From NCBI GenBank assembly GCA_964016885.1, contig OZ024748.1, positions 7,750,001 to 7,814,000 of the forward strand: a DNA stretch of 64,000 nt, written 5' to 3'. The position numbers and the translations under genes were made by a program. This DNA comes from Eledone cirrhosa (taxonomy: Eukaryota). The stretch's first letter is position 1, and each line of letters opens with the position of its first letter. Under the pieces are notes generated by a model, which had not been told where the DNA came from, ran no database searches, and worked only from the letters and a program-made list of their open reading frames with translations. Below are positions 30,295 to 63,093 of this stretch, piece after piece.

Positions 30295-31177
30295 TAGTTG
30301 AAATCAAACAATTAGCTCTCTAGTAGTTTTGAAAATAGTTTATTGGCTAAGTTTAGTATGTTTATAATCTCTTACCTCTGCGACATTTCTTTCAAAGAGG
30401 CTAAGATAGAAGTTGAACTTGGTTAACTATAAATAGACAAAATAATCTTATGTTGCAGACAAAGATATCATATTCATAATAGATTTCATTATATATATAT
30501 ATATGTACATGGCGGTGGATTGGCAGTATCGGTAGAGGGTCGGACGCCATGCTTTCCAGCATAATTACGTCCCTTTACGATCTGAGTTCAAATCCCGCCG
30601 AGGTTGACTTTGCCTTTCATCCTTATGGTGTCGATAAAATAAAGTACCAGTAATGCACTGGGTAATTGCTGGCCTTGTGCCTAAAGTAGAGACAATTATA
30701 TATATATATGTACAAATTATAACTGTAACATTATATATATATATATACATGTATGTAAAAGGTAAACAGAAATAATAACACAATCGGTACAGTATATGGA
30801 AGGAATATATTAGGTTAACGCTTGAAATAGCTGGAAGAGGGTCTTAACATTTAGGATGCTAGTCCATCAGAAAAAAGAATTAGAAATTAGATAGTTTGAA
30901 GGGACGGGCTGGCTGGATTGGGAACAAATGTCAGTTGATAAAAATAACAGGTCCATTCATGTTGCCATCATACATATATACATATACATATATTCTTATA
31001 TATACATATGTATAGAAATATACCTTTGTATATATACGTATATCATCATCGTCATTGTTTTTATGCCCGCTTTTCCATGCTTACATGGACGTATATATAT
31101 ATATATATACGTCCATGTAAGCATATATATATATACAATATATTAATAAATGGAAACTATATTTATAAAACCATATT

Positions 31178-31242
31178 TATTTTATTATACATATTTCAAG
31201 AGCAACCAAGACAAATATGGTGCGCTTTCATCAGATAAAATA
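31178..31242 (-). ncRNA. Minimal hammerhead motif (mirror copy in inverted arm)
   Basis: Reverse strand: tattttat CTGATGA aagcgcacca..tggttgctctt GAAA tatgta ta ataaaata. Confidence 0.7.
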
Positions 31243-31345
31243 CAGATTTGTTTTATAAATAAATATTGACATACCCGGTTGGAGCTTCCTGGATAAGGTT
31301 GTCTTTTTTCCGGGTATGTCAATATTTATTTATAAAATAAATCTG

Positions 31346-31410
31346 TATTTTATCTGATGAAAGCGCACCATATTTGCCTTGGTTGCCCTTGAAATATGTA
31401 TAATAAAATA
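31346..31410 (+). ncRNA. Minimal type-I hammerhead ribozyme motif
   Basis: Stem I tattttat/ataaaata; core CTGATGA 31354-31360; stem II aagcgcacca..tggttgccctt; GAAA 31391-31394; near-palindromic stem III; predicted cut after AUA at 31402. Confidence 0.75.
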
Positions 31411-31541
31411 AATATGGTTTTATGAATATAGTTTCCATTTATTAATATATTGTATATTTACTCCACTAACTTGTTGAGTGCTTTATATTAGTTATAAACA
31501 TTTTTAAGCTTGTTGAATCCCAGCAAATTAAATATAACCTC

Positions 31542-31605
<64 letters not shown>

Positions 31606-32264
31606 CATGTGTGTGTATTGAATGCAAGTTATATAAACCTAGCTTTCTGTTAAGTTTGAAAATAGTATGTTGACTAAGTTTAGAAGATTTCTTAGTGTGA
31701 TTCTCTGGAAAAGGCCAAGTAAGATGAAATCTGGACTGAAAGTTGAGCAAATCAACTCTTTGTATGAAAACCTTTTGAAGAATGCCTTGATAAGAGAGGA
31801 CATTGAACTCATCATGTCTGGTGATTTTTCTGGGGCATGTTGAAAAACTCTTTCATAACTATTCTCATCTACATGGAGGTTATAATTTAAAAATAGATTC
31901 ATTAGTGAATCTTATCACATTATTTTGTTTCAGAATTTTTAAAAGGAAAATTAATACTGATTGCCTTCCTAAAATATATTTTCATTATTTGTTAATTTTA
32001 TCCTTTTCTGTCTTCTATTTATTTTAGTTGCCTAAATACATTTTATCTCTGGTTATTTAATTGAAACAAAATTTCCCAAGAATCCTGATTAACAAGAAAA
32101 ATGAATTTCATTTTCTGTAAGTAGACTTTTTTTCTCTATCATTTCAAAATTACTTGTTGTATTTTAGGAATTGTATATATTGAAATTGATGGAAAAAGGT
32201 GTTCCTAATAGAGAACCCATTACTAAAACGGAAGTCTAATAAGGCCTCTTTATTAGCATTTAGA

Positions 32265-32495
32265 TCAGTTTATTGAGCTGTAGAAATGAGTTACGACATC
32301 ACTGGTGCCAAACTGTATCGGCCATTGCCTTTCCCTTGGACAACATCGGTGGTGTAGAGAGGGGAGGCTGGTATGTATGGGTGACTGCTGGTCTTCCACA
32401 AACAACCTTGCTCGGACTTGTGCCTTGGAGGAGAACTTTCTAGGTGCAAATCCCAGGTCATTCATGACCGAAGGGAGTCTTTACCCTTTACCCTA
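32265..32495 (+). mobile_element. SINE family 3, 3' part (full copy at 54208-54542)
   Basis: Shares ctgtagaaatgag core end with family 2, then a different tail ending tttaccc repeats. Confidence 0.7.
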
Positions 32496-33531
32496 TTGTA
32501 GCTACATCACTGGGTTGTGAGAGTTTTCTTAGGAGCTAACAATGTCATCCATTGCTCCACCTCCCCTAATAGTATACCACTGTTGGTCCAGGAATGCTTA
32601 TTCATCTGCCAGAAGCCTGATTATATTGCAACAAACCATCATATTTTGTGGTTTTATCACTATCCACCATCTTCGACTTGTTCTCTAGTAGAACAGCTCA
32701 GAGAAGTAAAGTTAAAAAAGTTAATAGGTAAATGAATTAATTACTGAAGAGAATACAATACTATGATTATCACTTTATTATTTATAATATAGGAAATTGA
32801 AGATTAATTGACGTTAATTGTCTCATTAATTATACATCTAACGAATAGAAATTTTTAAAAAAATCCATCTAATTTATACTAAGAAAAGATGTGGTAATAT
32901 TGATCTGTCAGCTTACACATCTGTTACTCAACATGTACATACTTGTTTCATATTTGCACTTGTTGTTAACTAAATATTAATATTTATTCTATATCTTGTT
33001 TTACAAGTCAAAAGTAAAAAAAAATCATAGCACTGTATCATTTGCTGTTCTCAGACAAACTAATTTATTATTTATCATTATTATAACAATTACAATCATC
33101 ATCATCATCATAATCATTATTGTCATCCTCATCATTTAATGCCTGCCCCCCCCCCCCCCACGTTAGCAAACGTTGTATGGATTGTCATAGACCATGTCAG
33201 GCCACTGACCTCTTAGATTGGCTAGAGGCTACATCTTGCTTACTACATACATTATCTCTCACACACACTCTCTCTCATGTCATCAGCTCTAATCTGTTGT
33301 TATGTGTTTGACACAACTGAAGAGTCATCTCAATCCTTTGTTTGGCATGGTTTCTATGGTTAGATACCTTTCCTATCATCAATCACTTTACAGATGGTAA
33401 TAGGTATATTTTTACCATCACCAGCACTATACTTCTAAATTTATACAGTTTTTCTCTGTAAGCATTTGTTTTGCTTCTTTTTATTTCCAGTTGATTCCAT
33501 TGTTTACATCTATTCTTAATGCTTGGTTTAA

Positions 33532-33751
33532 CCCTTTAGCATTTACATTATTCTATATTTACTATTGTATTTTCATGGTAAAGTCTTTACCTCATATAAT
33601 ATCTCACATAATATCGAATCTATGAGATTTTGATATTATTTATTTTGAGAACAATACCTTAACATCAGTATGAGTGGCCAGTTACAGCCAGTTTGAACAG
33701 AAAGAGGTGAGAGAATTCTGGCCAATTACGGCCGGTTTAAATGCTAAAGAG
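33532..33751. mobile_element. MITE family 1 copy
   Basis: ttaa|ccctttagcattta...taaatgctaaagag|ttaa. Confidence 0.85.
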
Positions 33752-34989
33752 TTAAACTTATCTTATATTATGCCACAACAGTGTTTGGTAATAGAATGGT
33801 AAGTTAGAAGCTGAGTATAGAAGCTCTATTTACATCTATATGTATTCTTCATCCTAAGCTCTCCCCACCATTTACATAACAACCATAGTTTTATTGTTGG
33901 CCTTATTACAATATCTTGAGAACTAGAATACTAAATAACATATTTTTGACAAGTAGTTATCTAGAAATGGTTCCATAAGAATAATGGTAGCATTAGTTGA
34001 ATAGGCTGGCACAGAGTCAGGTTGCAGCTTTTCTGCTATTATTATATTAAGGGCAGTAGGGCGGTGGATTGGCAGAATCGGTAGGGCACTGGACAACATG
34101 CTGTGTAGCATAGAGTTATGGCCCTTTATGTTCTGAGTTCAATTTACACTGAGGTTAGCTTAGCTTTTCATCCTTACGGGGCTTGATGTAATAAAGTACC
34201 AGTAATGCACTGGGGTTGATTTAATCAACTTCCCCCTGTCCTTCCAATTGCTGGCCTTTGTACCATCAGTAGAATTAATTACATTAAGGACTAGTGAACT
34301 GGAAGAGTTGTTAGAGCATCGATTATGTTTGTGAACATAACTTAACAGAGGTTCTTACATAAAATTATGTTGGATGGGCTTTAGATAAATATAAACACTT
34401 AAACCCTTTTGTTGCCATATTTCTAATGAAAGACAGTCTATAATTTTCAAATCATTTTGAAGATAATCAAAAATTTGGAAAGGTTTAATGAAATAACTAA
34501 ATTTCTAATTATTAAGTTCGTGTTTGGAACATAACTTAACAAAGGTTCTTACATAAAATATGACAACGATCCAGAATCAATATGCAAATAAATTGTTGAT
34601 GTCCATTACTGATATTTCTCAATCAATTACATTCTTAATAAATCTGTGGACTACAGAAATAAAGCAATAGAAAGCGAAGAGACATAGTAATCTCTGACCT
34701 TTAGTTACAATAAAAATAACTCTGTAGACGTGAACAGATTGAACAATACTGATGTGAACATGAAAAGTGATGCTCTTATAAAAATAAGTTAACCTATGTT
34801 GAGACTAGAAATGTGGAAACTAACATATTTATCTCCCTTCTCAAATATTTAGTGGTTACAAGGAGGGTATAATACTAGCTAACCCTGTAGAAATTTCATG
34901 GTTTAATTAGAAACAACCAAGTATTAAAGATTAATATGCCATTTTATATGTTTTATTTAGAAGTTATATATATATATATATATATATAT

Positions 34990-35179
34990 AACGAAGGAAA
35001 TGTGGTAAGGAACCAGGTGGACCATAACGCACCAAAGTACTCAATACTTAGGGTAGTAGAGTGGGTAATAGGAACGAGTAGGACCCCGACGACTGCGCTC
35101 AAGCCATTTCGACGGCTAATTCAGTCCAGAATTAGCCGTCGAAACGGCTTGAGCTCAGCCATCGGGGTCCTACTCGTTC

Positions 35180-35183
<4 letters not shown>
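34990..35183 (-). mobile_element. Fold-back element family C in (TA)n (55-bp arms)
   Basis: Same tail and same arm end point (ataggaac) as the 1990-2192 copy, with a few arm mismatches. Confidence 0.85.
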
Positions 35184-35222
<39 letters not shown>

Positions 35223-35244
35223 CATACATATATATATACATACA

Positions 35245-35318
<74 letters not shown>

Positions 35319-35520
35319 CATATATATATATATATGTGTGTGTGATATAATTGTCCAGATATTAAATAATAAAAATATTTGCACAGACACACTCTTACCA
35401 TTGCCTTTCCATAAAGACTTGTTACAGCTCTCTCTTTCACTCACTCATACAATCTCGTTTCCATAAATACATTAGATTTTTTAAAAAATCCAGTGCTACT
35501 GTCACCATTGCCACCCCAGC

Positions 35521-35556
<36 letters not shown>

Positions 35557-35814
35557 ACACGACAGACATTTTACATTAAATGTACAACAGCTGTAATACA
35601 ATAGATTGGGTTGGGCCAACTCTATTATTTCCCTTGGTTATGGTGAAGGACACAGACGATTGAAGCCTTTTTTGGTTTGTTCACAACTATTTTGTCTATT
35701 TAGTCTAAGTTTTACTAAGACAACACCTTCCATAGCTTTCATAATTCAGATGAAAAATTGCTTCTAACTTTCTTTTACTTTCTTTTTTTCTTTGGTTAGT
35801 TGGTATTATTATAG

Positions 35815-35905
35815 TTCTTCTTCTTCTTCTTCTTCTTCTTCTTCTTCTTCTTCTTCTTCTTCTTCTTCTTCTTCTTCTTCTTCTTCTTCTTCTTCTTCTT
35901 CTTCA
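35815..35905. repeat. (TTC)n microsatellite
   Basis: About 30 uninterrupted TTC units; source of the poly-Ser ORF. Confidence 0.95.
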
Positions 35906-36533
35906 CATCTCTCCTTCTTCTTCTTCACATCTCTCCTTCTTCTTCTTCACATCTCTCCTTCTTATCTTTCTTTCTTCTCCTCTTCCCTTCTCCTTTCTAA
36001 TGACCTTGATGTAAAGAAACTGCTAGAGATGTTTGGAAGCATTCCCTCTGCTATCAGCTTCCATAATACAGATTCTTCAGATAACACATACACAGGAATC
36101 ATTAACTTATGTTTTTCTTTAGATTCACATTTTACTACAGCAATAATACTGATTTATTTTTACAAATGGTATCATATTTCTGAAAAGTTGCCCCAGTTAT
36201 TTCTTTCTTTGCTTCTTTATCCACTTCACTTGTCTGTCTTTTCTGCTCATCCTCCTCCTCCTCCAATCCTTCTCCTACTATTACTACTCCCCTCCTCCCA
36301 CTCCTCCCCCTCCATTCTCTCCCATCTCTCATATTTCTTTTTCTTTTCATTTCTTTTCTTTTCATTCTCATTTATATATTTAAAATGTTAATGAAATAAA
36401 TATTTGTAATATCGTTTTATTTTCATATATTTATATAAATATAGATCTAGAAGAATGTAGTAGATTAGGCTTTTGTATGCAAATGGTAATTATTTTATTA
36501 ACCACAGTGGTATTAAATATGTAAGTATGTAGG

Positions 36534-37109: not shown

Positions 37110-37567
37110 CTTAGTCTTTGGCCCTAGGACCACCTCCCTACTCACCACCATTGGCACAGAGTTGGCTACCTGTAACAGTGGAAACATCTGGTGTTCTTGG
37201 CCCTAGGACCAACTCCCTACTCACCACCATCAGCAGAGAGTTGGCTACCTGTAGCAGTGGAGACTTCTGGTGTCCTTGGTCCTGGGACCAGCTCCCTACT
37301 TACCACCTTCATCACAGAGTTGGTTACCCATTCTAGTGGAGACTTCTGGTGTACTTGATCCTAGGATCACCTTCCTATTCACTACTATCGGCACGGAGTT
37401 GGCTACCCACAGGTGTAAGCCTTGCAAGCTGGAATGGCTACTCTTCCAACATGTCTCCCTCACCATCCTCCCAGGAAAACACTTTCTCTATTCTGTCTGC
37501 AAGGGCCATGGGGCGGCCAGTGCATAGGCTCCCATTTGCTTATAATAGTAGGAGATGGGGAGAGAGA
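37110..37567 (+). mobile_element. Dispersed element with diverged 79-bp internal repeats (reverse copy of 47925-49198)
   Basis: Units contain ccctaggacca..gagttggctacctgtagcagtggag; unique flank cttccaacatg..ataatagtaggagatgggga is shared with 47925-48060. Confidence 0.75.
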
Positions 37568-38809
37568 TCGAGGCAGTGAAAATGGGAATTTGATTCTTTT
37601 ATGTTCAGTCCTTGTTAGGAATTTTTTGTTTCAGTGTATATGTCGATACACACACACTCAAAGTGGTTCAGCGAAAAAGCATTGATAAAATGAGTAACAG
37701 ACTTGTTAGACTAAAGAATAAAAAAACTATCTTAGTTAGGGTAAAGGCATAAAATGGTTTACAAATTTGAATCTGAATCAGTCACCACGTGGTTTAATGT
37801 TGTCCAAAACAAAGCCAAACTGAAAAATTATCTGATTTGATATCATTGATTATTATCCTTCTATAAGCCAGGAGCTTTGATTGCGGTTTTATGTCAATAA
37901 AAAGAAAAGATTTAGCTAATATAAACACAATCAATTCCAGTAGAGTTTGTTAAAGACTCTGAATCATTAATGTCATAGCAATGTATCTTTATGCTTGGAA
38001 CAAACAGATTAACTGGTAATTTTAAATTACCGCTCCAAATTGAATGGCAATACATCTAGCATCTAATTACCATTAGGATTGTATCCAACTAATAAAATAA
38101 AGATACGTTGATATATTTTGCACATATAGATGTCCCTGTTTTGTTTTTGCATAAAACATATTCAATGTATATTTGTCTACAATGCCAATATTGATATAAA
38201 GTCAATATTGACACTATCAACCTGTCCTACAAACATGATCATGAGTGTGTGTAAGTGGTGGTGGTGGGGGCATATATGTGTGTGTGGGGTGTGTGCATAT
38301 ATGTGTGTGTATGAATGAGGGATGTGAATTTCAAGCCCGGAGCAAGGTTCAGCAGGTTTTCATGCACAATATTTTTTTGTAAAAAACTGCGACTTATTTA
38401 TGAGTATATATGGAAGTTATTGAGCTCGAACAGACACACATTAGTTTGTTGGAAGATAGTTCTGTTTCTCATATGATCCCCAAACCTTGCAATATTTGCT
38501 GGATTGAAACGTGTTCTATACAGAAAGTAACCTTTAATCTTTTAGTTAAAGAATTAAAAGACTAAATAGGTGTTATAGAAAATTAAAGGACTGAGAAAAG
38601 AGTTAGAAAGGTAGAATTTTACCATAGCAATTTTATTATATATATAAATATATATCACATAAGAAACGGAGAATCAGTGTTGCGACGAATAAAATTCTGA
38701 AATCACAAGGTCCTATCATCATCATCAATATATATATATATATATATATAGGAAAAGAGTCAGGACCCCGACGGCTAAGCTCTGGCTATTTCGACAGCTA
38801 GATCTGAAC

Positions 38810-38832
<23 letters not shown>

Positions 38833-38840
<8 letters not shown>

Positions 38841-39012
38841 ATACTTGGGGAGGGTCATATTTGTGTAATATTGCCAGAATTAATAACAGAACACACTCAC
38901 TGTTTGGTTGGTTTTCGCTTTTCGCTTCTGTGTATTTTATATCGGTAATCTAATTTATTCGGTCCTCAATGTTGCCATTGACTGACCAACGGTCTAAAAT
39001 AATACAGATACA
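38833..39012 (-). mobile_element. Family F terminal fragment beside (TA)n
   Basis: ttgttatacttggggagggtcat motif shared with 19840-19885, 50352-50610 and 63585-63755. Confidence 0.65.
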
Positions 39013-39035
39013 ATATAGACACAAACACATATATA

Positions 39036-39880
39036 TAGTTTATCAAAGTTCTTTCGTTGCACATCTGCAACATCGTCAGTGGTGCTATTGTTTCCTCCCG
39101 TTGCATTGTATTTTCTACGCCATCTTTATTTAGTCTGTTTATATATTTATTTGTTTATTTTATTTTGTCTTCTTTGCGCATGCGTTTGCGTGTGTGTAGA
39201 GTGTTTTGTTTGATGTGTGTTCGTGATTGGGTGACTGTGTATTGGTTAATGTATTCTATCTTTACTAGTGTGTGTTTATATGTGTTTGTTGTTATTGTGC
39301 TTGTGTATGTATTTATTTATTTATTTATTTATTTATCTATTTATTTATTTATACTTCTCTTAGGTCAGTGTTGTTTGTTTGGGTGTTGTTATTCCATTCA
39401 TTCTTTCTGTTTAGCCTTGGCCTTCTAAGTTCTATTTCACTGGCCTCTCTGATTTGCCTATCTGCTGGGTCATTTCTATGTTTAGATATTATTCTAATTT
39501 CTATGTTGTCTATGTTACCGTCGTGTTGTTGTCTGGCATGTTCGTATAGTACTGAACCATTTTTTCGTCCTTTTAGTTCCCCCCAGTGTTGGTCTATCCT
39601 TTCACCTATGCTACGAGCTGTCTCGCCTATGTATGTTGTTGTCATGTTTCTGCAAGTACCCTCTGTACATCTTATGCTATAGACTACGTTTCTAGTTTTA
39701 CAGGTTATCCGGGGGTTTACCTTACATATGATACATTTCCTATTAGTACAGTGGGTTTTCTTAAAAGGTTAGGTTTTGCTGATTAGGGATTTTATGGTGG
39801 TTCCTGGCTTTTCTACCACCTTAATCTTTAAGTGGGTCTTTCTCAGGGCCTTTCTACACTGGTTAGCTAATTTCCCTCCA
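39036..39880 (-). mobile_element. Penelope-like retroelement 3' fragment with GIY-YIG endonuclease
   Basis: HCTNRKCIICK..CKTRNVVYSIRCTEGTC..TYIGETARSIGERIDQH..SVLYEH..RQIREASEI..PRLNRKNEW (stop 39349); stop/frameshift further upstream; between TA runs. Confidence 0.88.
39041..39083 (-). ncRNA. Minimal hammerhead motif in Penelope-like 3' region
   Basis: Minus strand: cca CTGACGA t gttgca-gatg-tgcaac GAAA gaac tt tga; perfect 6-bp stem II, stems I and III slightly decayed. Confidence 0.65.
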
Positions 39881-39923
39881 CACGATTTCATATCAAAAAC
39901 CTCGCAAAACTAATTCATCACCG

Positions 39924-39990
<67 letters not shown>

Positions 39991-44509: not shown

Positions 44510-44880
44510 TAATATCTCTTTAGTCTGACTAAGAACATAACAAAGTTTCTTGTGTTGATATCTCAATAAATTGAACTCTGTAAAGTGATTGGTGTTAAGA
44601 AGAGCATACAACCAAAGACACCAGGCCAAATATATATATATAATAATGACATGAGATGGATAGGTCGTCACTGATCCAAATCAGTTCATATTTGGCATCA
44701 CTGCTCTCCTTGATGGATGAGAGGGCCATATCTCATTTGTAGGTACTATATTTGGCATGGTGTCTTTGGTTGTATGCTCTTCCTAACACCAATCACTTTA
44801 CAGAGTGTAATAAGTTCAATTTATTGAGATATCAACACAAGAAACTTTGTTATGTTCTTAGTCAGACTAAAGAGATATTA
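44510..44880. repeat. Inverted duplication (~125-bp arms, ~110-bp spacer)
   Basis: taatatctctttagtctgactaagaacataacaaagtttcttgtgttgatatctcaataaattgaact is mirrored exactly at ~44813-44880. Confidence 0.9.
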
Positions 44881-45240: not shown

Positions 45241-45685
45241 TAAATATATCTATAACATGCCTCCTGTTTATTGCAACATAATCACACAAATCACACACTT
45301 GCTAAACAAGAGAAAGAGATCATATCATGTTGTAGACACCAACATAAAAACAGGGTAGACAACCAACAATATAGCTACAGTGGTATGTACAAGCTGTGAA
45401 AATACCCTTACACAGAAACATTGACTGAGATTCAATTAGAAATATCAAACCCAAATTACATATGTAGAATGCTAGAATGCTTCACACACATTCATATATA
45501 TCAACATATATATTTAGATAGACTTAAAAGTACTTTTATACTCAAAGAAAACACACCCCATTAAGATTATAAATAATAATAATAATAATGAAATTATTGT
45601 GTACAGTGCTCAGGTGCACTACAACTCATCAAAGGTGCATGTATAGTAATGATTGATCAACAAATCATAAAAATTGTGATTAGTT

Positions 45686-46750
45686 AATAATTACTATATT
45701 ATAACTACTCTCAAAACAATAATTACTATATTATAACTACTCTCAAAACAATAATTACTATATTATAACTACTCTCAAAACAATAATTACTATATTATAA
45801 CCACTCAAAACAATAATTACTATATTATAACTACTCTCAAAACAATAATTACTATATTATAACCACTCAAAACAATAATTACTATATTATAACTACTCTC
45901 AAAACAATAATTACTATATTATAACCACTCAAAACAATAATTACTATATTATAACCACTCAAAACAATAATTACTATATAACTACTCTCAAAACAATAAT
46001 TACTATATTATAACCACTCAAAACAATAATTACTATATTATAACTACTCTCAAAACAATAATTACTATATTATAACCACTCAAAACAATAATTACTATAT
46101 TATAACCACTCAAAACAATAATTACTATATTATAACCACTCAAAACAATAATTACTATATTATAACTACTCTCAAAACAATTACTATATTATAACTACTC
46201 TCAAAATAATAACTATATTATAACTACTCTCAAAATAATAACTATATTATAACTACTCTCAAAATAATAACTATATTATAACCACTCTCAAAATAATAAC
46301 TATATTATAACTACTCTCAAAATAATAACTATATTATAACTACTCTCAAAACAATTACTATATTATAACTACTCTCAAAATAATAACTATATTATAACTA
46401 CTCTCAAAATAATAACTATATTATAACTACTCTCAAAATAATAACTATATTATAACTACTCTCAAAACAATAACTATATTATAACTACTCTCAAAACAAT
46501 AACTATATTATAACTACTCTCAAAACAATAACTATATTATAACTACTCTCAAAACAATTACTATATTATAACTACTCTCAAAATAATAACTATATTATAA
46601 CTACTCTCAAAACAATTACTATATTATAACTACTCTCAAAATAATAACTATATTATAACTACTCTCAAAATAATAACTATATTATAACTACTCTCAAAAC
46701 AATAACTATATTATAATTACTCTCAAAACAAGAGCTACTGTATTATAACC
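45686..46750. repeat. 29-32-bp AT-rich minisatellite (~35 copies)
   Basis: Unit aataattactatattataactactctcaaaac, with a gradient of length variants along the array. Confidence 0.95.
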
Positions 46751-47221
46751 ACAGTATCTGTAGAGTGTTAGACACCATGCTTTGCAGCATAGAGTTATGG
46801 CCATTTATTTTCTGAGTTCAAATCCCGCCGAGGTTTGCTTTGCCTTTCATCTTTACGGGGTCAATAAAATAAAGTACGAGTAATATACTGGGGTCGATTT
46901 AATCAACTTTCCTCTCCCCCAAATTTCTGGCTTTGTGTCTATAGTAGAAATCATTATCATCATCATTGTTTAATGTTTATTTTTCATGCTTGCTTGAATT
47001 AGACATGTGATGTGGTGAGTCTACAGAGGTCAGTTGAGCATGTCTTGCTCATATCTTCTGTTTTGGGTTTGATCGCTATGGCTGCATGCCCTTCCTACTT
47101 CAATAAAATATCCTATAGTGATTGCTGAAATATTTTTGATCTCAGGTCTATATTATAAACTAACAAAATATGAAGCTTTGAATATTAATAAAAGCCATTC
47201 AACTTTGGTGGGAAAGTTTAA

Positions 47222-47416: not shown

Positions 47417-48092
47417 TTAAGAAGAAAAGCAATGCATACACATTTATGCATTCATCATCATTTTTATTTTAATATCCATTTTAACATGGTGGCATAATTT
47501 GTGTAGAGTGGCTTAATGTCACTCTACACACTGTGTGTCTCATCTCAATTGTGAATTACATATAATTAGAATTCCAGTCTTTCCTCTTCTTTCTAAGCAT
47601 TTCTTTCAACCTGCTGCTGTTATTTATTTGCTTCACATGTTCATCATACTAATGCAGCTGTTTTTCTGTATGCATTGCTTGATATCTTTAAAGTATAGCT
47701 GCTCTCTTAACTCTCTTTTGTTGGTGTCTCTCAGACAAGCTAATGGATCGTGACTGTTTCTGTCTGTGTTGGCGTTTATTACCCTAGCATTAATAGCTAC
47801 AACTTTACAGAAGATACATTGCCAGTGTTTTAACTTAGACATGGATAAATTAAAATAAAAACAAAAACTTGTGTTATTAAATGATCCGATACAAAGCTGT
47901 TATCAGTTGTAACTTATTGGTTTCTCTTGCTCTCCCCATCTCTCACTATTATAATCAAATGAAGGCCCACGTACTGGCCACCCCATGGCCCCAGTGGACA
48001 GAATAGAGAAAGGTGTTTCCCTGAAGGATGGTGAGGGGAAACATGTTGGAAGAGTCATTACAGCTCATGAGGCTCACACCATGTTGATGGTG

Positions 48093-49198
48093 GCTACAGG
48101 TAGCCAACTCCATGGCGATGGTGGGGAGTATGGAGCTGGTCCTAGGGTCAAGGACACCAGAAGGCTCCACTGCTACAGGTAGCCAACTCCATGGCGATGG
48201 TGGGGAGTATGGAGCTGGTCCTAGGGTCAAGGACACCAGAAGGCTCCACTGCTACAGGTAGCCAACTCCATGGCGATGGTGGGGAGTAGGGAGCTGGTCC
48301 TAGGGGCAAGGACACCAGAAGGCTCCACTGCTACAGGTAGCCAACTCCATGGCGATGGTGGGGAGTATGGAGCTGGTCCTAGGGTCAAGGACACCAGAAG
48401 GCTCCACTGCTACAGGTAGCCAACTCCATGGCGATGGTGGGGAGTATGGAGCTGGTCCTAGGGTCAAGGACACCAGAAGGCTCCACTGCTACAGGTAGCC
48501 AACTCCATGGCGATGGTGGGGAGTAGGGAGCTGGTCCTAGGGGCAAGGACACCAGAAGGCTCCACTGCTACAGGTAGACAACTCCATGGCGATGGTGGGG
48601 AGTATGGAGCTGGTCCTAGGGTCAAGGACACCAGAAGGCTCCACTGCTACAGGTAGCCAACTCCATGGCGATGGTGGGGAGTAGGGAGCTGGTCCTAGGG
48701 GCAAGGACACCAGAAGGCTCCACTGCTACAGGTAGCCAACTCCATGGCGATGGTGGGGAGTAGGGAGCTGGTCCTAGGGGCAAGGACACCAGAAGGCTCC
48801 ACTGCTACAGGTAGCCAACTCCATGGCGATGGTGGGGAGTATGGAGCTGGTCCTAGGGGCAAGGACACCAGAAGGCTCCACTGCTACAGGTAGCCAACTC
48901 CATGGCGATGGTGGGGAGTATGGAGCTGGTCCTAGGGGCAAGGACACCAGAAGGCTCCACTGCTACAGGTAGCCAACTCCATGGCGATGGTGGGGAGTAG
49001 GGAGCTGGTCCTAGGGGCAAGGACACCAGAAGGCTCCACTGCTACAGGTAGCCAACTCCATGGCGATGGTGGGGAGTATGGAGCTGGTCCTAGGGGCAAG
49101 GACACCAGAAGGCTCCACTGCTACAGGTAGCCAACTCCATGGCGATGGTGGGGAGTATGGAGCTGGTCCTAGGGGCAAGGACACCAGAAGGCTCCACT
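48093..49198. repeat. 79-bp GC-rich tandem array, 14 near-identical copies
   Basis: Unit gctacaggtagccaactccatggcgatggtggggagtatggagctggtcctagggtcaaggacaccagaaggctccact; 1106 bp = 14 x 79. Confidence 0.97.
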
Positions 49199-49254
49199 GA
49201 AATTATCTATAAATGAAATTTATAGATTTCATGGTATAATAGGTTTGATATGTT

Positions 49255-49500
49255 GTCATATTTCCTTGAGCAAGACACTTTATTTCATGTTGTTCCAGTC
49301 CTCTAAACTGGTAAAATGAGTTGCATTTGTATTTCAAATGTCTGCTTTATCACATACAATTTCATGCTGAATCTCCATGAGAACTATGTTAAGGATAATC
49401 ATGTCTATGGAATACTAAATCACTTACACATAAGTTTCACAAGAGGTTGTTCCATTGTTCAAACAACTGGAATTCTCATCGTTGAAACTGACTGAGGTCC
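49255..49500 (+). mobile_element. SINE family 4 (same core as families 2/3, third tail type); related copy ~61432-61682
   Basis: ccttgagcaagacactttatttcatg core followed by gaatctc..atgtct.tggaat..cactt.cacat.a.tttcacaa..gttgttccatt shared between the two loci. Confidence 0.6.
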
Positions 49501-50160: not shown

Positions 50161-50351
50161 ATAAGAGGATATCCATGAGGGTGCTTGGCTATTCTTTCAC
50201 CTTAGCAATGCTATCACCTGTCACAATGTTGCAAGTGTGATGCTTCACCTAAAAAATATACGAGAAGAAACTTCAGAACCCTTTGTTGTGTGTGTCTGCC
50301 TTCTACATATTTTCCTCTCATTTTTTTTTCTTGATAAAATATGATAGAAAC

Positions 50352-50610
50352 TATATTGTTATATTTGGGAAGGGTCATTTCCTAATATTGCCAAAAATAG
50401 TAAAAGCACTCTCACTGTTTTACTATTTCTGGCAATATTAGAACAACACTCCCCAAATATAACAATATATGTTTCAACAAACAAAGTATCATATCAAAGC
50501 AAGAGAAAACCAAACCAAGCAGTGAGTGTGTTTTACTATATTTTTCTGGCAATATTAGAACAGCACTCTCCAAATATAACTATTTGTTTCAACACACAAT
50601 TTCATATCAA
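50352..50610 (+). mobile_element. Family F: inverted plus partial-tandem terminal repeats
   Basis: Inverted arm 50352-50415, then two direct copies ending ..caaatataac..gtttcaaca. Confidence 0.65.
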
Positions 50611-50780
50611 ATTGCAAAACAAATGCCACCAGAACATGTTGTAAAAATTGAAATCTTCTAAGTATGTATAATGATCATTATTATTTATTCTCTAATAGGT
50701 TAAAAATTACACAGAGTATATTTTCTCATTAATTTTAGAAATATAGTAGTTTCCTGTTTGTGGTATATATCTCTGTATCA

Positions 50781-52476: not shown

Positions 52477-52533
<57 letters not shown>

Positions 52534-52535
<2 letters not shown>

Positions 52536-52867
52536 CGATATTAAACAAATGGAAACTATATTTATAAAACCATATTTATTTCATTATACATATTTCGGGG
52601 ATACTATATTAAAAATATGGCATGCCTTCGTCAGATAAAATACAATATATAAACAGTTTTAATATATTGTATTTTATCTGACGAAGGCATGCCATATTTT
52701 TAATATGGTATCCCCGAAATATGTATAATGAAATAAATATGGTTTTATAAATATAGTTTCCATTTGTTTAATATCGTATATCTACTCCAAAAACTTGTCA
52801 AGTGCTTTATATCAGTTATAAAATATTTACTTGTTGTAACCCAACAATTTTAAATAAAACTTTTGCA
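52534..52867 (+). mobile_element. Fold-back element family A (arms 52534-52650/52662-52778 + tail)
   Basis: Nearly perfect 117-bp arms; long (TA)n on the left and (TA)n on the right. Confidence 0.88.
52670..52735 (+). ncRNA. Minimal hammerhead ribozyme motif (mirror copy at 52577-52642, minus)
   Basis: tattttat CTGACGA aggcatgccatat-tttta-atatggtatcccc GAAA tatgta ta atgaaata; predicted cut after 52727. Confidence 0.75.
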
Positions 52868-54895: not shown

Positions 54896-57800
54896 AAATT
54901 GAACCAGTTCATTCTGTAAAGTGTGAGATGTGCCCCATCCCATTCCAGCCCATCTGAGAGGTCAATAATTCTGACTTGGTCTGTGACGACCCATCTAACC
55001 CTTTGTAGCAGAGAAAATGAATCTTGAAAGATGACGGTAATGATGATGAACATCATCATCATGTTCATGATGGCAACTGCATATTATACAATATATTGAC
55101 TGCTCAATCATGGTGATAACTTATTTTGTATAATTTATCACAGTTGATTCTTGAAACACAATATATATTCTCTATATATATTCTTTCTTAGAATATACAG
55201 GAAATAACTGTTAACATAGTCGATTACTATAAATAATAACTATAGAAAATTGGATAAATCACCACAATAGATGGATATAAGTGTCTAGCAGCTGCTAGGA
55301 AGAATTGAACTTCGTACCTCTCAAAGATATTATTTTATAAGGTGTTATTTATACTGTCATTATATGTTTTCTACATTTTCTAAGAATTTCAATTAATTCA
55401 AGGCTCCGAAATATATATATATATACAAGCAAATATATATACAAGCAAATATATATACAAGCAAATTAAAAACGTAAACATGTAAGTATGTTTTTGAAAC
55501 GGTGCACGAGTTTGAAATTAGAAATTAGAAATTATAAGCTTTCACCGTATTTTAGACTAAAGAAATTTCTAGCCTGATAGTGGGGTTTATAACCCCCGGA
55601 GAAATGGAAAAAGATGAGTGTTGCCAAGAGTCAGAACCCACCGGCTGATCTCTTGCCATTTCAATGAGTCTGGAATTGGCTGTATAATATAACCATACTC
55701 TACTACTCCAAGTATTGAGTACTATGTTGAGCTATGGTCTAACCAGTTTCAAACTGAATCCGTCCTGAGATATATATATATATGTATGGACTTGTGCCAA
55801 TGTCAGAAATCTCTGAGGTTACATAATTCTAGGAAAGACATTAACCTATATGTTCATTAGAATAGTAACATACTAATGTTTGTACTCAGAAGTTCTTAAT
55901 ATCCTAGTATGGAGATAACAATTTAATACTGTATAGACAACTAGTAAAAGATAAAAAAATAAATGGGACTGTTAATTTAATAACCATATTATAATGTTTT
56001 ATGTTTTTATGTATTCTAAAAGTATATGTAGGAATACTGTAATTTGGTACTTGAAATTCACTAATAAGCAAATCTTTAGTGTACTTCCCTTCGCTTGTGG
56101 AGAAGTAGTTCTTTCCTGTCCAAAGAGCTAGTGTTCATTAGTAGCATGAAGCCATTTTCCTGCAGTAATTTATATGTATGTTGAAGTCCACCAATTGTTA
56201 TATTTGAGGCTATAACTTTATATTTGAGACAGAATATATAGCAACATTATTTTCATTTGTGCGATAACATATTATTCATTTGGGTTTTGATTTCTACAGA
56301 AACGTAAGTTCAAAAATCTAAATATTATCAACTTTTTAAAACTTTTTTCTGAATTGTATTTTGTATGAAATGGCGGCAAATCGCCTGTTATTAGAAAGTC
56401 AGATAAAATGCTTTGCAGTATTCATTCCGGTTGTCTGAGCTCTGAATTCAAATCATGCCAGGGTCAACTTTGCTGTTCATCCTTTTGAATTCGATAAAAA
56501 AAATTACTAGTCTCATACTAGGGTTGATTCTTCATTTATATCTCTTTTCTACTGTCTCTCTATCACTTTCTCTCCTTATCTGGAAGAAATTGTCTGTGTT
56601 CAGACATGGAGAGGGATGGGCTTTGTTAGAGCTAGAATTCTCAACAAATGCTGTATATCACAACAATGCCCTTGCAATTCCTCCAGGAGTTATGGGTTAA
56701 AAATCAAAATAAATTTCATATGAATAATATCTTCACAATTTGCAAGATAAACCCAAACGTATCATTCAATAGTTTCCTTAGATTTTATTTAATTTTATAT
56801 TTAATCAATGTTACCTTTCAGTATTTACATACAATCATATAGATTTTAACATTTAATTAAAAATGTTAAAACAAAAATCAATATTATTTGCTGTATACAA
56901 AATCAATACTTATTGGAATTTCTTAAACTAGTTATAGATTTCTATTAAACTATATATATTCACTTATCTTTTCTAAACCTATTATTTAAGTTTATAAATA
57001 TTTCAAATCATTAATGGCTACAATTTTAGGTTTTCATCATAACTACATATTTAACATAACATTTCATGAGGGAACATTTAAAATATTTTACAATTATCTG
57101 ATACACTGCTTATATCGACAGACTTGAGTGCATTTTAAAAAAGTTATCTCCTCAGAGGTGGAGATAGAACCATTGTTCTTATGATAGAAATCTGAGCAAG
57201 AAAGAAACTGCGTCATATTTTAGCAATGACATCTACAAGATCTACAATCTATTAAGTTACTATTTCTTTCTGCAAAAGTCAAAATTACATGAGTTTTGTT
57301 TTGTTTTTGTTTTCTTTTGTACGACAATGAAACGTTATTCACTAGTATTAAAGGTATTTCTCAACGGTTAATATAAAATCCAGTTACGGATTTGATAAAT
57401 CTTTTAAATGAATTCATACACACCAAAAATAAACATGTGTGTTTGACCTTCTCAGGTGGATTATGACAGTTTTACAACATTTGCAGTTGTTATTAGCAAA
57501 CATAAATTAGGTGTGAAATTATTTTTTTCTCTGTTTGTCTGAGGCAAGTAAAATAGAAGACACAACATAATGTCTATTGAAATTGATGACATTTCTCTCC
57601 CATGGACATAACTTTAACTCTCTGTCATGCATAAAACCTCCAATGTAATTCTTGTATCTTGATCAAATTTATAAGCAACTTTTTCTGCATGACAAATGAT
57701 CCTCCTAACGTTTTTTTTTATTTTATTTCAGAGAAATAAAATTGTCATATGTTATTTAAAGCTTATTAAAATTATACATTGAAATTATCTAAGTAGTTAA

Positions 57801-58250
57801 TAACTTCTAATATATTATCAATAGGGTTGAAAACCCCCGAAATTTTATACTAACAAATTTATTTTAAATTTATCTGTTAATGCATAAAAGAGACAATAAC
57901 GGTGGTTTTGAAATGAGATTAAAATGAGTGGTGCAAGCTGAGTAGCCAGGGCAGACCAAGGAGAAAGTGAAGTGGCTTGGCCTAAATTACAGGAAATGTG
58001 ACTCACAAAAGACAGGGTTTACTTTAAAACTCTTATAAAGTATGAAGAGGAATGACTGTAGAGGTTTCAAGACATGTCAGTCAGTAAAAAAACAAAATTG
58101 TCAAACTGTTGAAGATGAGGATATATTTAGTATGTCTGGTTAAACCATAAAGGTCTTAGTACAATTAGACAATGAAATTTAAAGATTTAGATTTACTAAG
58201 GGAGATAACACACAATAATTACAACAAATTATTTCCTTTATCTACTTTAA

Positions 58251-58486
58251 CCCTTTCATGTCTGCATTTCTAATGAAATACACTCTATTTTAATTAAGTA
58301 AAGAAGAATTTTTAGATATTTACTAAAATTATTAATTATTTCATTAAGAAGACAGTAACTAAATTTAATGTTCTTATATAAAATTATGTTGGAAGATTTT
58401 AATTCAAATTGGAAAACTTTAAAATGAGTGGTTTTATTTCATAGAACCAGAGCTGGTTTTGGACTAAAGGGTTTTGAATTAAAGGG
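58251..58486. mobile_element. piggyBac-like MITE family 2 copy
   Basis: ttaa|ccctttc...aaaggg|ttaa; interior related to 34400-34560 and (reversed) to 2915-3451. Confidence 0.6.
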
Positions 58487-59018
58487 TTAAACTCAAGAAC
58501 GCTTGTAGGATTCTAAATATTATCTATATTTATTATCATTTCAATCATTTTACCCCTTTTCAACCTTTTTCTTTGCCTTGTCTTATGCATTGTAACAAAA
58601 ATTCATGTTGTCTTTCATGTCATACATTCTTTTTGAAGGATGTTTATATTTTGTCATCTTATATTTTGATTACAAAGTGAAGCAATAGCTGATACAAGTA
58701 ACCATCTATTAACTATATATATAACCCATGCTAACGTAGAAAATGGACGTTAAATGATGATGATGATATATACATACGTGGGTCTTTCTTGTGTGTTTGA
58801 TTTATATGGATCACACATATACACACACACACAACACATACTCACATATAAACACATAGACACTGATAGAAATAATGAATATAATCAAACCTCATCAGTA
58901 ATATATTAAACAAAAGATCATTAATTGCATTATTTTATCTTATTTGTTATGTTTTATTTTTCAGTTTAAAAAGCTGAAGCCACAGTGCCAAATTATATCT
59001 GGTTAGTGTTTAATTGTC

Positions 59019-59117
59019 ATGGCAACAGAGAGAAGGATGGTGCAACAAAACGATAACAGTCCATGTCCAATTCAGACAGCTGCAATTCTTACTGTGAGAA
59101 TGGTGATGCAAGGAAAA
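59019..59117 (+). CDS. PCBP: First coding exon of poly(rC)-binding protein (PCBP/hnRNP E, mub-like); exon 58965-59117 including 5' UTR part
   Basis: Acceptor ttttattttttcag ending 58964; MATERRMVQQNDNSPCPIQTAAILTVRMVMQGK then gtaagt donor at 59118 (phase 0). LTVRMVMQGK matches the PCBP KH1 start LTIRLLMHGK. Confidence 0.88.
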
Positions 59118-59410
59118 GTAAGTCTTGGTTTTACCACAAATTCGATATATATATATATATATATATATACAATCATGATAATTACAAAGTCCAGATGTAG
59201 ATAATCTTAATTAATTTTATTCATAGTCTGCCATAATACATATTTCTGTGGCATTAATAATTACATAATGCTCTCATCATACAACCACCACCACAACCTC
59301 ATCAGACAACATCTTTAGTAATAAGGCTGTTTTGTAACATTTCTAATCTAATACAGGCTATCGACAAGGAGACAGACGAATTCAATGCCAGTCCTTTGGG
59401 AGTCTGTCCC

Positions 59411-59444
<34 letters not shown>

Positions 59445-59445
<1 letters not shown>

Positions 59446-59606
59446 CAAGAGTAAGAAATTGCCTAGACAAATGAATTTACATAGTATGCGTGTTTGTACA
59501 ATTATATAGGTGCAATGACATAAGAACATCTGTCATTGCACCTATATAATTGTAAAAACATGCATACTATGTGGATACATTTGTCTAGACAATTTCTTAC
59601 CCTTGA
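59445..59606. repeat. Intronic hairpin, ~76-bp arms, 10-nt loop
   Basis: ..acaattatataggtgcaatgaca-taagaacatc-tgtcattgcacctatataattgt.. extends out to tcaag.gtaagaaattg / caatttcttac.cttga. Confidence 0.9.
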
Positions 59607-59754
59607 CTTACTGTGTTACTGCCCCTAATGGAAATTCTTAAATTTTGTATTAGTAGAGCTGACTTTAGGTTCTAACAGTGACTATTTTTAACACTTTGGT
59701 TACCTTATACTTTTGTCAGACAATATAATTAATAATTTTATGTATTAACCAATA

Positions 59755-59842
<88 letters not shown>

Positions 59843-59934
59843 CTGTATATTCAACAAATGTTACTGTATGTATTTCTGTATATAATTGATTTACATTTAA
59901 TCCCAATTTTAATTGAATGTTATTTTTATTTCAG

Positions 59935-59958
59935 GAAGTAGGAAGTATAATTGGAAAG
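59935..59958 (+). CDS. PCBP: 24-nt micro-exon of PCBP KH1 domain (EVGSIIGK)
   Basis: tttttatttcag|GAAGTAGGAAGTATAATTGGAAAG|gtaagc; in frame with the previous exon giving MQGK-EVGSIIGK, the approach to the KH GxxG loop. Confidence 0.92.
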
Positions 59959-60017
59959 GTAAGCAAGCTATATATTTTCTATCTTCTTTTATATTTTGTA
60001 AAGAGTAATTAAATTAA

Positions 60018-60288
60018 CCCTTTACCATTTACATTACTCTCTATATATATACTATTATATTTCCATAGTAAAGTCTTTATCTCACATAATTATCTCACAC
60101 GATATGGAATTTATGAGATTTTGATGATGTTATTTATTTTGAGAACAATACCTTAACATTAGTATGAGCAACTGGTTACAGCCTGTTTGAACTAAAAGAG
60201 GTGAGAGAGTTCTGGCCAGATACAGCTGGTTTGAACAGAAAGCGGTGAGAGAATTCTGGCCGGGTTCAGCTGGTTTAATTGTTAAAGG
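60018..60288. mobile_element. MITE family 1 copy with internal duplication, 60 nt after the micro-exon
   Basis: ttaa|ccctttaccattta; gtttgaac.gaaag.ggtgagaga.ttctggcc occurs twice. Confidence 0.8.
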
Positions 60289-60964
60289 TAGCAAGAATCT
60301 TTTGAATATGCAAAAGTTCATTTAATCACTTCTTTATTTAATTACTTATATGATTTTTTTATCCCTTATTTTCTATCTTTATATTATTTAGGAATGAGAT
60401 ATTTTTTTTTTTTTTTTTGGTATTGAAGATCAACTGTATTCCGATAAAAACACATCGGAACGTAAAGTTATTTCTATAGGAAAATAGTCATTTATTTTCA
60501 GGCACAGATTTTATAAATGCAGTTAACTTTATAGAAAACTAGAGCAGCTTCTAAATTCTTCATATTTCTTTTAAATTACTAATATTTTTTATCTTTAGCG
60601 ATTTTTTAAAATTGAAATCTGAAATGTAAAATAGATCAGTTTAAACTTTATAGTAAAGTTTCTTTAGAAATTTGAAAACTATATTTTTGACTTTTAAGAC
60701 CTTAAATTGTTAGATATCATCATAGTAATTAACTACGCAGTAACTGATGCTTTCTCTCCAATAGTTCCTGCTTGTCGTCAATTGTTGTTGCTGGCTTGCC
60801 TGTTTATCAACTGAGATGTTTTATGTTCTGAAAAATTGTTTCTGAACCAAGGTTCCACTATATATATATATATATATTTATCATCATTATCATCATATAT
60901 ATATATATCATGATATATATATATATATATATATTTATCATCATCATCATATATATATATATCA

Positions 60965-61034
<70 letters not shown>

Positions 61035-61168
61035 CCAGGGAGTGTAACTTGGAGTTACTGTAGGTTCACCCAGGTGAGCACTCGATGTTTAGGTTCACTT
61101 CAGTGTCGCGGTGTAGAGCTAGACAGAGTGTACTATAGAGAAATAAGATAGTGAAATAAGATATTATT

Positions 61169-61204
<36 letters not shown>

Positions 61205-61207
<3 letters not shown>

Positions 61208-61336
61208 TTTCTGAAGAAGATGGCTGATTGAAGAGGGATTTCGAGACAAGAAATAGGTAGTAACTTAACCGCTACCATTCTAGTTGGTTCATTGATCTCC
61301 ACCAATCAATCGACCCTCTGAAACGATCGTAAAATA
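61205..61336 (+). ncRNA. Candidate hammerhead with long stem II and perfect palindromic stem III
   Basis: gttt CTGAAGA (61211-61217) aga..tgattg ... caatca..tct GAAA (61320-61323) CGATCG TA aaat; directly follows (TA)n. Confidence 0.55.
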
Positions 61337-62270
61337 ATGAACTAACTACCTATGCCTCACTTCTGTTTCTCTTATTGTTGTATGCACACACACTGATACA
61401 CATATACACACGTGTGCGTGTGTGTGTATGAATGCTTAGTAAAGGTGTTTGGTTGACATTTGTACAGTTAAGGGTTCAATTCCCAGCAATGCGTTGTCTT
61501 CCTGAGCAAGAGACTGTATTTCATGTGCTTCAGTCCACTCAGATGTCAAAAGTACCTGTAATTGAAAGAGCTGCATTGTCCCATAATGTCATGTAGAATC
61601 TCACTGAGTATGTTATGGGTATATATGTCTTTGGAATGCTCAGCCACTTGCACATTAATTTCACAAACTGGTTGTTCCATTGAGAGGGTGCTTTGCAGCA
61701 TAGAGTTACAGCCCTTTACGGTCTGAGTTCAAATTCCACCGAGGTTAACTTTGCCTTTCATCCTTACAGGGCCGATAAAATAAAGTACCAGTAACGCACT
61801 GGGTAATTGCTGGCCCTGTGCCAAAAGTAAAAACAATTATTATTACCATGGGAGTGTATCACTGGCATGGCACAAAATATAGTTCACCTTTTTCAGGATA
61901 TATTGATTAGATATCTACATTCATTACAAATTAATATTTATTACAAATCAATATTTATTACAAGTCTATATTTTTTACCTCCTATTAGTTAGAAAATTGA
62001 AATAAAACTATATTGATTGCTTTGTAGATATAAATGACATTATATATATATATAGTGTATATATTGTGTATGAATTATGTACTATATATTGTATATAAAT
62101 AATATATAGCCTGTAAATGATATATAGTGAATATAGTGATATATATTGTATATATGTATATATATATCATCATCATCATCATCATTTAACATCCATCTTC
62201 CACGCTAGCATGGGTTATATATATATATATAGGATTCCTGGCGTTCCGGCATGGGAACTCTAATAGTTAT

Positions 62271-62597
62271 GGAGGCACATGGCTTAGTGGTTAGAGCATT
62301 GGCCTTGCAATCGAAAGGTTGTGAGTTCAATTCTCAGACTTGAGCAAGACACTTTATTTTACATTACTCCAGTTTACTCAGCTGTAGAAATGAGATGATA
62401 GGGACTGGGGTCCATATCATTCCACTGCAAAGTGGTCATGGAGGTGCCACGGCAAAAAAGCACCCAGCACTCACTGTAAATGAGGTTGGTGTTAGGAAGG
62501 GCATCCAGCTGTAGAAATCAAGCCAGAATCAGTTCCCGTCCCACCCTTGCAAGCAGGGAAAAGTGGACGTAAAATGAAATGAAATGAAATGAATGAT
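62271..62597 (+). mobile_element. SINE family 2 copy
   Basis: Near-identical to the 7650 copy with a short deletion. Confidence 0.85.
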
Positions 62598-62620
62598 ATA
62601 TATCATGTAAGTGGTATATA

Positions 62621-62658
<38 letters not shown>

Positions 62659-62692
62659 ACCTGAAAGTGATATATATATATATAATATAATA

Positions 62693-63093
62693 TAATATAA
62701 GATCAAAAGATGGTTAAAGGAGTTCCATGTATTTTATTATGCGCATTTCAAAAACAAACATCATCATGCAATAATATTTGTGTTTTCATCAGATAAAACA
62801 GGAGAACATGTTATGAAGGCTAAAAAACACTTGTGGATAGTGCAGTTTTAAATCAACATATCCACAAGTGTTTTTTAGCCTTCATATCATGTTCTCCTGT
62901 TTTATCTGATGAAAACACAAATATTATTGCATGATGATGTTTGTTTTTGAAAGGCGCATAATAAAATACATGGAACTCCTTTAACCATCTTTTGATCTTA
63001 TATTATGTATACTCCAGTCCTACAAACTGTAGAGTGCTTCTTATCCGATATCTGCATTGCTTTATTGTACTACAATAAAACTCACCTCCTACA
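62693..63093 (+). mobile_element. Fold-back element family B (arms 62693-62839/62859-63005 + tail)
   Basis: ~147-bp arms with ~2 mismatches, TA-rich flanks, hammerhead motif in each arm. Confidence 0.88.
62730..62800 (-). ncRNA. Minimal hammerhead motif (plus-strand mirror at 62898-62968 has one stem-III substitution)
   Basis: Minus: tgttttat CTGATGA aaacacaaatattatt-gc-atgatgatgtttgttttt GAAA TGCGCA ta ataaaata; stem III palindrome ATGCGCAT. Confidence 0.75.

Follow-up and report, generated by a model that had tools for sequence, protein, structure and literature searches.

In a 64,000-nucleotide (nt) stretch of the Eledone cirrhosa genome (GCA_964016885.1, contig OZ024748.1, positions 7,750,001 to 7,814,000; the whole stretch is called the window, and positions count from its first letter), three short elements, E1, E2 and E3, consist of two inverted arms that each carry a hammerhead ribozyme core. 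We conclude that E1-E3 are most probably 5′-truncated insertions of a Penelope-like element (PLE), each made of two head-to-head copies of the element's 3′ end, with the fold-back as a by-product. Fold-back architecture with opposite-strand hammerheads is already published (PMC4209133, PMC8557442, PMC3846280), and the build is that of a described by-product, not of a new ribozyme-controlled mobile element.

GC makes up about 33% of the window, which contains 97 (TA)n runs. As a reading made from the letters alone had described (hereafter the sequence-only reading), all three elements have (TA)n on both sides, and each comprises two long inverted arms followed by an unpaired tail of about 85-90 nt 3′ of the right arm (Table 1). 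The (TA)n flanks would mask any target-site duplication. The arms are 97-99% identical within an element, with 2-5 differing positions per arm pair, and less similar between elements. A perfect 48-nt palindrome with a (TA)n centre (31077-31124), of a different, tail-to-tail kind, adjoins E1 on the left.

Furthermore, we found that the same build recurs elsewhere in the window. Among the 53 (TA)n-bounded segments of 60-1300 nt, 10 are fold-backs at a score of at least 60. Nine of these start no more than 8 nt from one (TA)n run and leave 61-153 nt to the other, the tenth (29140-29928) is without such a tail, and no fold-back is symmetric. The nine comprise four copies of family A (E1, E2, E3 and a further copy, A4), two of family B (B1 and B2), and C, D and F. 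In every one of them a tail-less arm is paired with a tailed arm, for which independent choice would give a probability of at most about 1 in 500. Tails measure 56-149 nt in the eight fold-backs that aligned, and spacers range from 1 to 56 nt. The earlier count of three elements was therefore confirmed but incomplete, having missed the ribozyme-less A4 and five fold-backs of other families. A4 and E2 are alike in tail and outer ends; the A4 arms are about 30 nt long, truncated before the ribozyme. Complete hammerhead cores are found only in E1-E3 and in none of B1, B2, C, D and F, which argues that the hairpin is independent of the ribozyme. A model built from the family-A alignment found no matches beyond the 7 arms used to build it.

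A remnant of a neighbouring family at 38836-39924 provides the connection to a coding element. Its long arm contains the end of an open reading frame (ORF; 39349-39873, minus strand, stop at 39349) with GIY-YIG-type motifs, a CX4CX2C linker and a CCHH motif, and, in its 3′ region, a hammerhead core at 39079 that is degenerate. This 3′ region runs into (TA)n at the same point as the tail-less arm of fold-back C (29 of 33 nt identical), and at the 5′ end of the remnant a tail-only second arm matching the family C tails follows on the opposite strand. The long arm and the tail-only arm have no common sequence; the remnant is the same kind of two-armed insertion and forms no hairpin because its arms do not overlap. 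A C-terminal GIY-YIG, a CX2-5CxxC linker and CCHH are the published marks of Neptune/Nematis and exclude Hydra, Poseidon and Naiad (PMC8557442); judged by these motifs in its translation, the remnant, which is without a reverse transcriptase (RT), is of the Neptune/Nematis type. The ORF has 1348 relatives at E<=0.001, shows 39% identity to the C-terminus of the 681-residue protein P0029, and its alignment with RT-endonuclease relatives contains invariant C, H, Y, G and R columns. A profile of the ORF with 14 relatives matches reverse transcriptases (best E 4.5e-6), and telomerase only at E 0.15. Pfam did not recognise the ORF, with one of the 15 aligned members matching GIY-YIG (E 0.0008); a single-protein PDB search with P0038 returned no RT, and for P0003 none of 52 candidates in metagenome contigs was confirmed. 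The homology to the 3′ end of a GIY-YIG/RT element that the sequence-only reading had expected is thus present for family C. For family A, neither comparisons within the window nor a search of metagenome contigs with a family-A pattern (0 matches) found a link to any ORF, and its parent could therefore be autonomous or a non-coding derivative. The Penelope-like origin proposed earlier is supported by the homology of family C to the ORF-bearing remnant and by the common build.

The outer ends of these insertions are fixed, and their centres vary. The two family B copies have the same outer ends and different centres, in parallel with E2 and A4. Reads and contigs were placed on the E1 stretch 31279-31546, the E2 and E3 centres being judged within the window. 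This placement comprises 5971 contigs of run X1 and 28727 reads of run X10 (same species label), which are counts and not copy numbers, together with 54 contigs of X5, from another organism, and one X6 contig with a 34-nt match only. We found that 71 X1 contigs exit the E1 stretch at 31457 into (TA)n, and that 12 of the 15 joints among those listed change strand, each with its own pair of positions. Upstream of 31294, 40 X1 contigs and one X5 contig extend into letters that, compared by eye, agree with 31275-31295 read in reverse complement (20 of 21 positions); therefore each E1 arm carries upstream sequence missing from the other. The left arm reaches its upstream part over a deletion of about 21 nt; these letters are present in the right arm, and the two arms share 2 nt. 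Because neither is a subset of the other, the E1 arms look like independent copies. As a separate observation, an X10 joint from 31455 to 31447 (3 reads) is flanked by family A pieces and holds 29 letters that fit the proximal end of family C in reverse complement; it may be a nested insertion in TA or a chimeric one whose arms stem from two families.

From this anatomy we infer the following enzymology. The GIY-YIG endonuclease of the element would cut both strands of a (TA)n repeat, and each free end would prime reverse transcription on uncleaved element RNA, one from a proximal and one from a distal start site, with priming likely aided by 2-5 nt of TA pairing. Both complementary DNAs (cDNAs) would end early at variable points and then be joined head to head. 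A hairpin would arise only if both cDNAs cover the same region, and two hammerheads only if both pass the ribozyme, which would be inherited from the parent's terminal repeat, where it would be selected, and would decay in the fold-back. All six arms read through the predicted cut site, which argues for an uncut RNA template. The TA overlaps at the proximal junctions are 5, 3, 3, 4, 2 and 4 nt in six families, a sum of 21 compared with a null mean of 6.1 (P 0.0007); here E1/E2 were counted once, the mis-aligned A4 was dropped, and the palindromes G, H, I, J, K and L, which do not have the (TA)n-arm-tail-(TA)n build, were excluded. Our preference for two cDNAs draws on published in vitro work on the Poseidon element PAc of the anole Anolis: AT-rich DNA is cleaved and extended on both of its strands, the tail is set by two internal start sites of the RT, mutating the ribozyme leaves insertion normal, and the template is mainly uncleaved RNA (PMC11167929). 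A more specific version, in which a single RT-endonuclease dimer cuts (TA)n and primes both cDNAs by TA pairing, obligately one per start site, seems to us evenly balanced between right and wrong. That this dimer model holds and that, in addition, the hairpins (about one per 7 kb in the window), centred on the terminal repeat that bears the ribozyme and read through in host transcripts, are a genome-wide source of double-stranded RNA silencing the parents and feeding adenosine-to-inosine editing is rather unlikely.

All six arms have stems I and II and the hammerhead core (CUGAnGA, GAAA and UH), and a strict type I hammerhead descriptor gives six matches in the window, namely five of the six arms and 59305-59235, compared with a mean of 0.03 and a maximum of 1 in 30 dinucleotide shuffles. 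The sixth arm, the right arm of E3, has the core with a G at position 15.2 (point change at 62953) that breaks the stem III palindrome; in the other five arms the palindromic stem III permits a dimer form. A perfect-palindrome variant at 31398 accounts for about half of the depth in run X1. In the six-arm alignment, every cell of the 8 stem I pairs is paired (100%); in stem II, six of the nine pairs have both sides changed across subfamilies, and 79.6% of cells are paired. The true placement is 89.5% paired and slid-structure controls 40-59%, in a covariation test that has only 3 independent subfamilies and a structure set from the tested sequences themselves.

These results agree with the sequence-only reading in that each arm has a full core, stem I is 8 bp, stem III is a short (near-)palindrome, and the motifs are minimal type I hammerheads with one ribozyme plus its own antisense per strand. 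The cuts it had placed after 31402 and 52727 were recovered at the same positions; on the plus strand a third is predicted after 62960, and on the minus strand cuts are predicted at 31186, 52585 and 62738. Its description of stem II as variable yet paired fits the both-side changes; one pair is mismatched in all six arms. At this fourth stem II position, C faces C or U (31364 with 31387 in E1) while the neighbours covary, and the conserved mismatch perhaps serves a tertiary contact. Rfam hammerhead models may miss minimal variants. Proposed earlier as a check, they gave no match among the 119 Rfam matches to the window at E<=5, nearly all of which are hairpin or TA look-alikes under the gathering score. 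In one X1 contig (depth 4.2), a joint from 31369 to 31403 resumes at the first base past the predicted cut, possibly by chance.

In the fold-back, the hairpin is predicted to be 94-100 kcal/mol more stable than a forced hammerhead fold on both strands of E1-E3, and the pairing probability of stem I rounds to 0; these energies describe RNA alone and take no account of help in folding from protein, which has been reported for the anole element. Since the arms stand head to head, transcription of either strand reaches the antisense arm before the sense arm, and the fold-back gives the ribozyme no same-strand partner for the dimer form. In free dimer folding, the dimeric hammerhead is not the minimum-energy structure, which speaks neither for nor against a dimer form. 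Dimer cleavage by PLE hammerheads is reportedly treated in a further published study. For minimal PLE hammerheads, monomer cleavage was absent and dimer cleavage low (PMC4209133). Moreover, differences between the arms hit stems II and III (52707, 62953). On these folding models the ribozyme in the fold-back is predicted to be locked in duplex and off throughout. A built-in off-switch competing with cleavage, as had been suggested, is unsupported, given the predicted advantage of the hairpin and the earlier synthesis of the antisense arm. Use of such duplexes by ADAR or Dicer is plausible.

Several observations weigh against our explanation. At E2 the junction does not keep the phase of the TA repeat, and at E3 it is imperfect. 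The start sites of PAc are non-homologous to the cut DNA and show no strand difference (PMC11167929), whereas here the proximal sites overlap (TA)n and nine of nine fold-backs combine a tailed with a tail-less arm; the tails here are also longer than the published 30-40 bp (PMC8557442). Not every insertion is two-armed, 38750-38809 being a single arm between (TA)n runs, and family A is tied to an ORF only via family C and the common build. Among the 12 strand-change joints, 11 occur only in one restriction-site-associated DNA (RAD) library, nine with 3-11 reads; the other two RAD-only joints have 81-86 reads that share a single start, so that library chimeras may be among the joints, and three near the proximal start site are ambiguous in orientation. 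Finally, the near-perfect centres of E2 and B1 (spacers of 5 and 1 nt, with 62/62 paired in B1) can also be explained by snap-back self-priming, in which one cDNA or antisense RNA would fold back and copy itself into the second arm, the product still being a Penelope-like by-product. Self-priming has been proposed for the palindromic junctions of Adineta Penelopes (PMC3846280). A snap-back copy does not simply give E1 arms of which neither is a subset of the other, and the remnant arms without common sequence and the range of spacer lengths also speak against it; we give it a low probability.

In the model that follows from the sequence-only reading, the whole fold-back would instead be replicated as one retrozyme-like, non-autonomous unit, and its hairpin would serve as a regulated off-switch. 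Such a unit would fit the retention of the core in both arms, the covariation of stem II across subfamilies, the closer similarity of arms within than between elements, the high repetition of the family in the placed contigs and reads, and the existence of non-autonomous PLE derivatives (10.64898/2026.07.22.740005). It is at odds with the variation of the centres between copies, with the single sense ribozyme per strand, which cannot release unit-length RNA, with the absence of tandem units in E1-E3, with the predicted dominance of the hairpin and the arm differences in stems II and III, and with the five fold-backs that share the build without a complete core, so that this proposal is unsupported and its probability very low. 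A retrozyme of the non-LTR kind (LTR, long terminal repeat) was rejected on the one sense ribozyme per strand per element and on a distance of 10-21 kb between the nearest same-strand cores; a miniature inverted-repeat transposable element (MITE) or foldback DNA transposon was rejected since it would have terminal inverted repeats at both ends and a fixed interior, whereas here one of the arms invariably leaves 61-153 nt to the end and the centres vary. A further possibility is that the palindromes arose in assembly, or by generic template switching during replication at AT-rich DNA, without any link to retrotransposition. Either might be expected in a GC-poor window with so many (TA)n runs, and none of the contigs listed covers the whole 31279-31546 stretch. 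This explanation is hardly credible, as the arms differ at 2-5 positions with distinct spacers, the same pair of outer ends is found again in separate copies and other runs, and family C is homologous to the ORF-bearing remnant.

Two truncated cDNAs thus remain our preferred explanation, and published systems provide close parallels. Inverted 5′-truncated copies with a one-sided tail are described in PMC3846280 and, with a tail of 30-40 bp and (TA)n targets, in PMC8557442; opposite-strand pairs of minimal hammerheads about 100-700 bp apart, tied to truncated elements, are described in PMC4209133. Like E1-E3, the endonuclease-bearing (EN+) elements Neptune and Nematis have a head-to-head inverted truncated copy with a one-sided tail, a hammerhead in the terminal repeat and a microsatellite target (PMC8557442, PMC3846280), and the neighbouring remnant resembles them in its CX4CX2C linker, CCHH motif and C-terminal endonuclease (PMC8557442). 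Unlike these elements, the fold-backs in the window have longer tails (56-149 nt) and a 2-5-nt TA overlap at the proximal start site, and E1-E3 have no ORF because both arms are very short. The arms share with minimal PLE hammerheads a type I core, a long stem II and palindromic 15.2-16.2 and loop 3, the opposite-strand cores lying 114-168 nt apart here and 100-700 bp apart in Schistosoma mansoni; they differ in a stem I of 8 bp compared with 4-5, in a stem III palindrome of 8 nt, in not keeping G10.1-C11.1 and in the stem II mismatch (PMC4209133). Animal non-LTR retrozymes are likewise short, non-coding, AT-rich, PLE-related and equipped with a type I hammerhead, and differ in that their units follow one another in tandem, head to tail, and give off circular RNA by means of ribozymes on the same strand, whereas E1-E3 are inverted pairs (PMC7229834; 10.64898/2026.07.22.740005). 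In the hammerhead and Penelope literature on octopus or cephalopods we found only PMC8557442, whose consulted passages do not cover these families; its supplementary lists or Repbase may hold them. The tail length, the TA overlap at the start sites and the strict tail asymmetry are small additions to the known picture.

Table 1. Positions of the fold-back elements, their ribozyme motifs and related insertions in the window. Hammerheads are predicted and start sites putative.
Feature	Positions	Strand	Remarks
E1 arms	31128-31278 / 31310-31460		146/151 paired; spacer 31 nt
E1 tail-less arm, 5′-truncated copy	31128..31295	-	ends at proximal start site in (TA)n
E1 left-arm segment	31279-31295		further upstream family sequence, joined over ~21-nt deletion
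E1 tailed arm	31294..31460	+	31294-31295 is the 2-nt overlap with the other arm
E1 tail	31461..31545	+	between proximal and distal start sites; (TA)n at end
E1 hammerhead core	31234-31186	-	
E1 hammerhead	31346-31410	+	
E2 arms	52531-52653 / 52659-52781		121/123 paired; spacer 5 nt
E2 tail-less arm	52531..52653	-	
E2 tailed arm	52659..52867	+	arm to 52781, tail after
E2 hammerhead core	52634-52585	-	one stem II pair broken
E2 hammerhead	52670-52735	+	
E3 arms	62692-62839 / 62859-63006		146/148 paired; spacer 19 nt
E3 tail-less arm	62692..62839	-	
E3 tailed arm	62859..63093	+	arm to 63006, tail after
E3 hammerhead core	62792-62738	-	perfect palindromic stem III
Fourth family-A copy (A4)	30047..30194	+	92% to E2 over 123 nt; read by eye
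Family B fold-back (B1)	1990..2192	-	same build; spacer 1 nt; 62/62 paired
Family B fold-back (B2)	34989..35183	-	outer ends as B1, centre different; spacer 6 nt
Family C fold-back	63528..63755	-	same build; arm end matches remnant 3′ end, 29/33 nt
Fold-back D	59441..59759	+	same build; 149-nt tail
Fold-back F	63186..63487	-	same build; 58-nt tail
Single type I hammerhead	59229..59311	-	stem III as in E1-E3; 245-nt piece between (TA)n runs, no fold-back
Long arm of 5′-truncated Penelope-like remnant	38836..39873	-	ORF end, 3′ region, family-C proximal start site
Tail-only second arm of remnant	39879..39924	+	matches family C tails, runs into (TA)n

Other pieces of these families lie in the window. 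Family B pieces without a fold-back are found at 1569-1697, 38750-38809 and 55697-55739; the family B arms contain GAAA-stem III-UC with a loop that is palindromic, which may be one half of a hammerhead, and no copy in the window reaches CUGAnGA. A relative of family C at 50347-50640 has an inverted arm and a partial tandem of two units, without (TA)n flanks, a layout that is the classic complex Penelope arrangement, and older single pieces lie at 13978-14044 and 19840-19890. Inverted repeats outside the (TA)n-arm-tail-(TA)n build occur at 9062-9664, 24744-25320, 29145-29366, 44510-44880 and 3331-3409, with spacers of 9-274 nt.

On the plus strand, 58968-59118 and 59935-59958 are exon-like pieces bounded by AG/GT, with an ATG at 59019 followed by 33 residues and then EVGSIIGK. 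We take the translation, unconfirmed, to resemble the start of a PCBP-type KH domain, which would place D, E3, F and C in plus-strand introns; for the short exon-like piece, neither PDB nor Pfam gave a match, and the window yielded no following exon. Minus-strand C-terminal remnants at 4705-5553 and 9696-10430 resemble non-LTR retrotransposon ORFs, the first matching RVT_1 (E 7e-7). Minisatellite arrays lie at 1-623, 5500-6850, 27497-28399, 45656-46871, 48014-49340 and 37114-37407 (periods 44, 33/37, 67, 30/32 and 29, 79 nt), the one at 37114-37407 being an inverted relative of the 79-nt array, and a short interspersed element (SINE)-like repeat of about 150 nt is scattered across the window.

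Taken together, these insertions are useful for a point left open in PMC8557442, namely the way in which Penelope-like elements come to insert as inverted, tailed copies, and the reason that microsatellites are favoured. As the insertions are short, abundant and two-armed, a single read holds the central joint together with both start sites, and a genome-wide count could separate two independent cDNAs from self-priming and probe priming assisted by TA. Repeat annotation and searches for ribozymes and microRNAs should also expect them as a dense source of hairpins of 60-150 bp that are nearly perfect.

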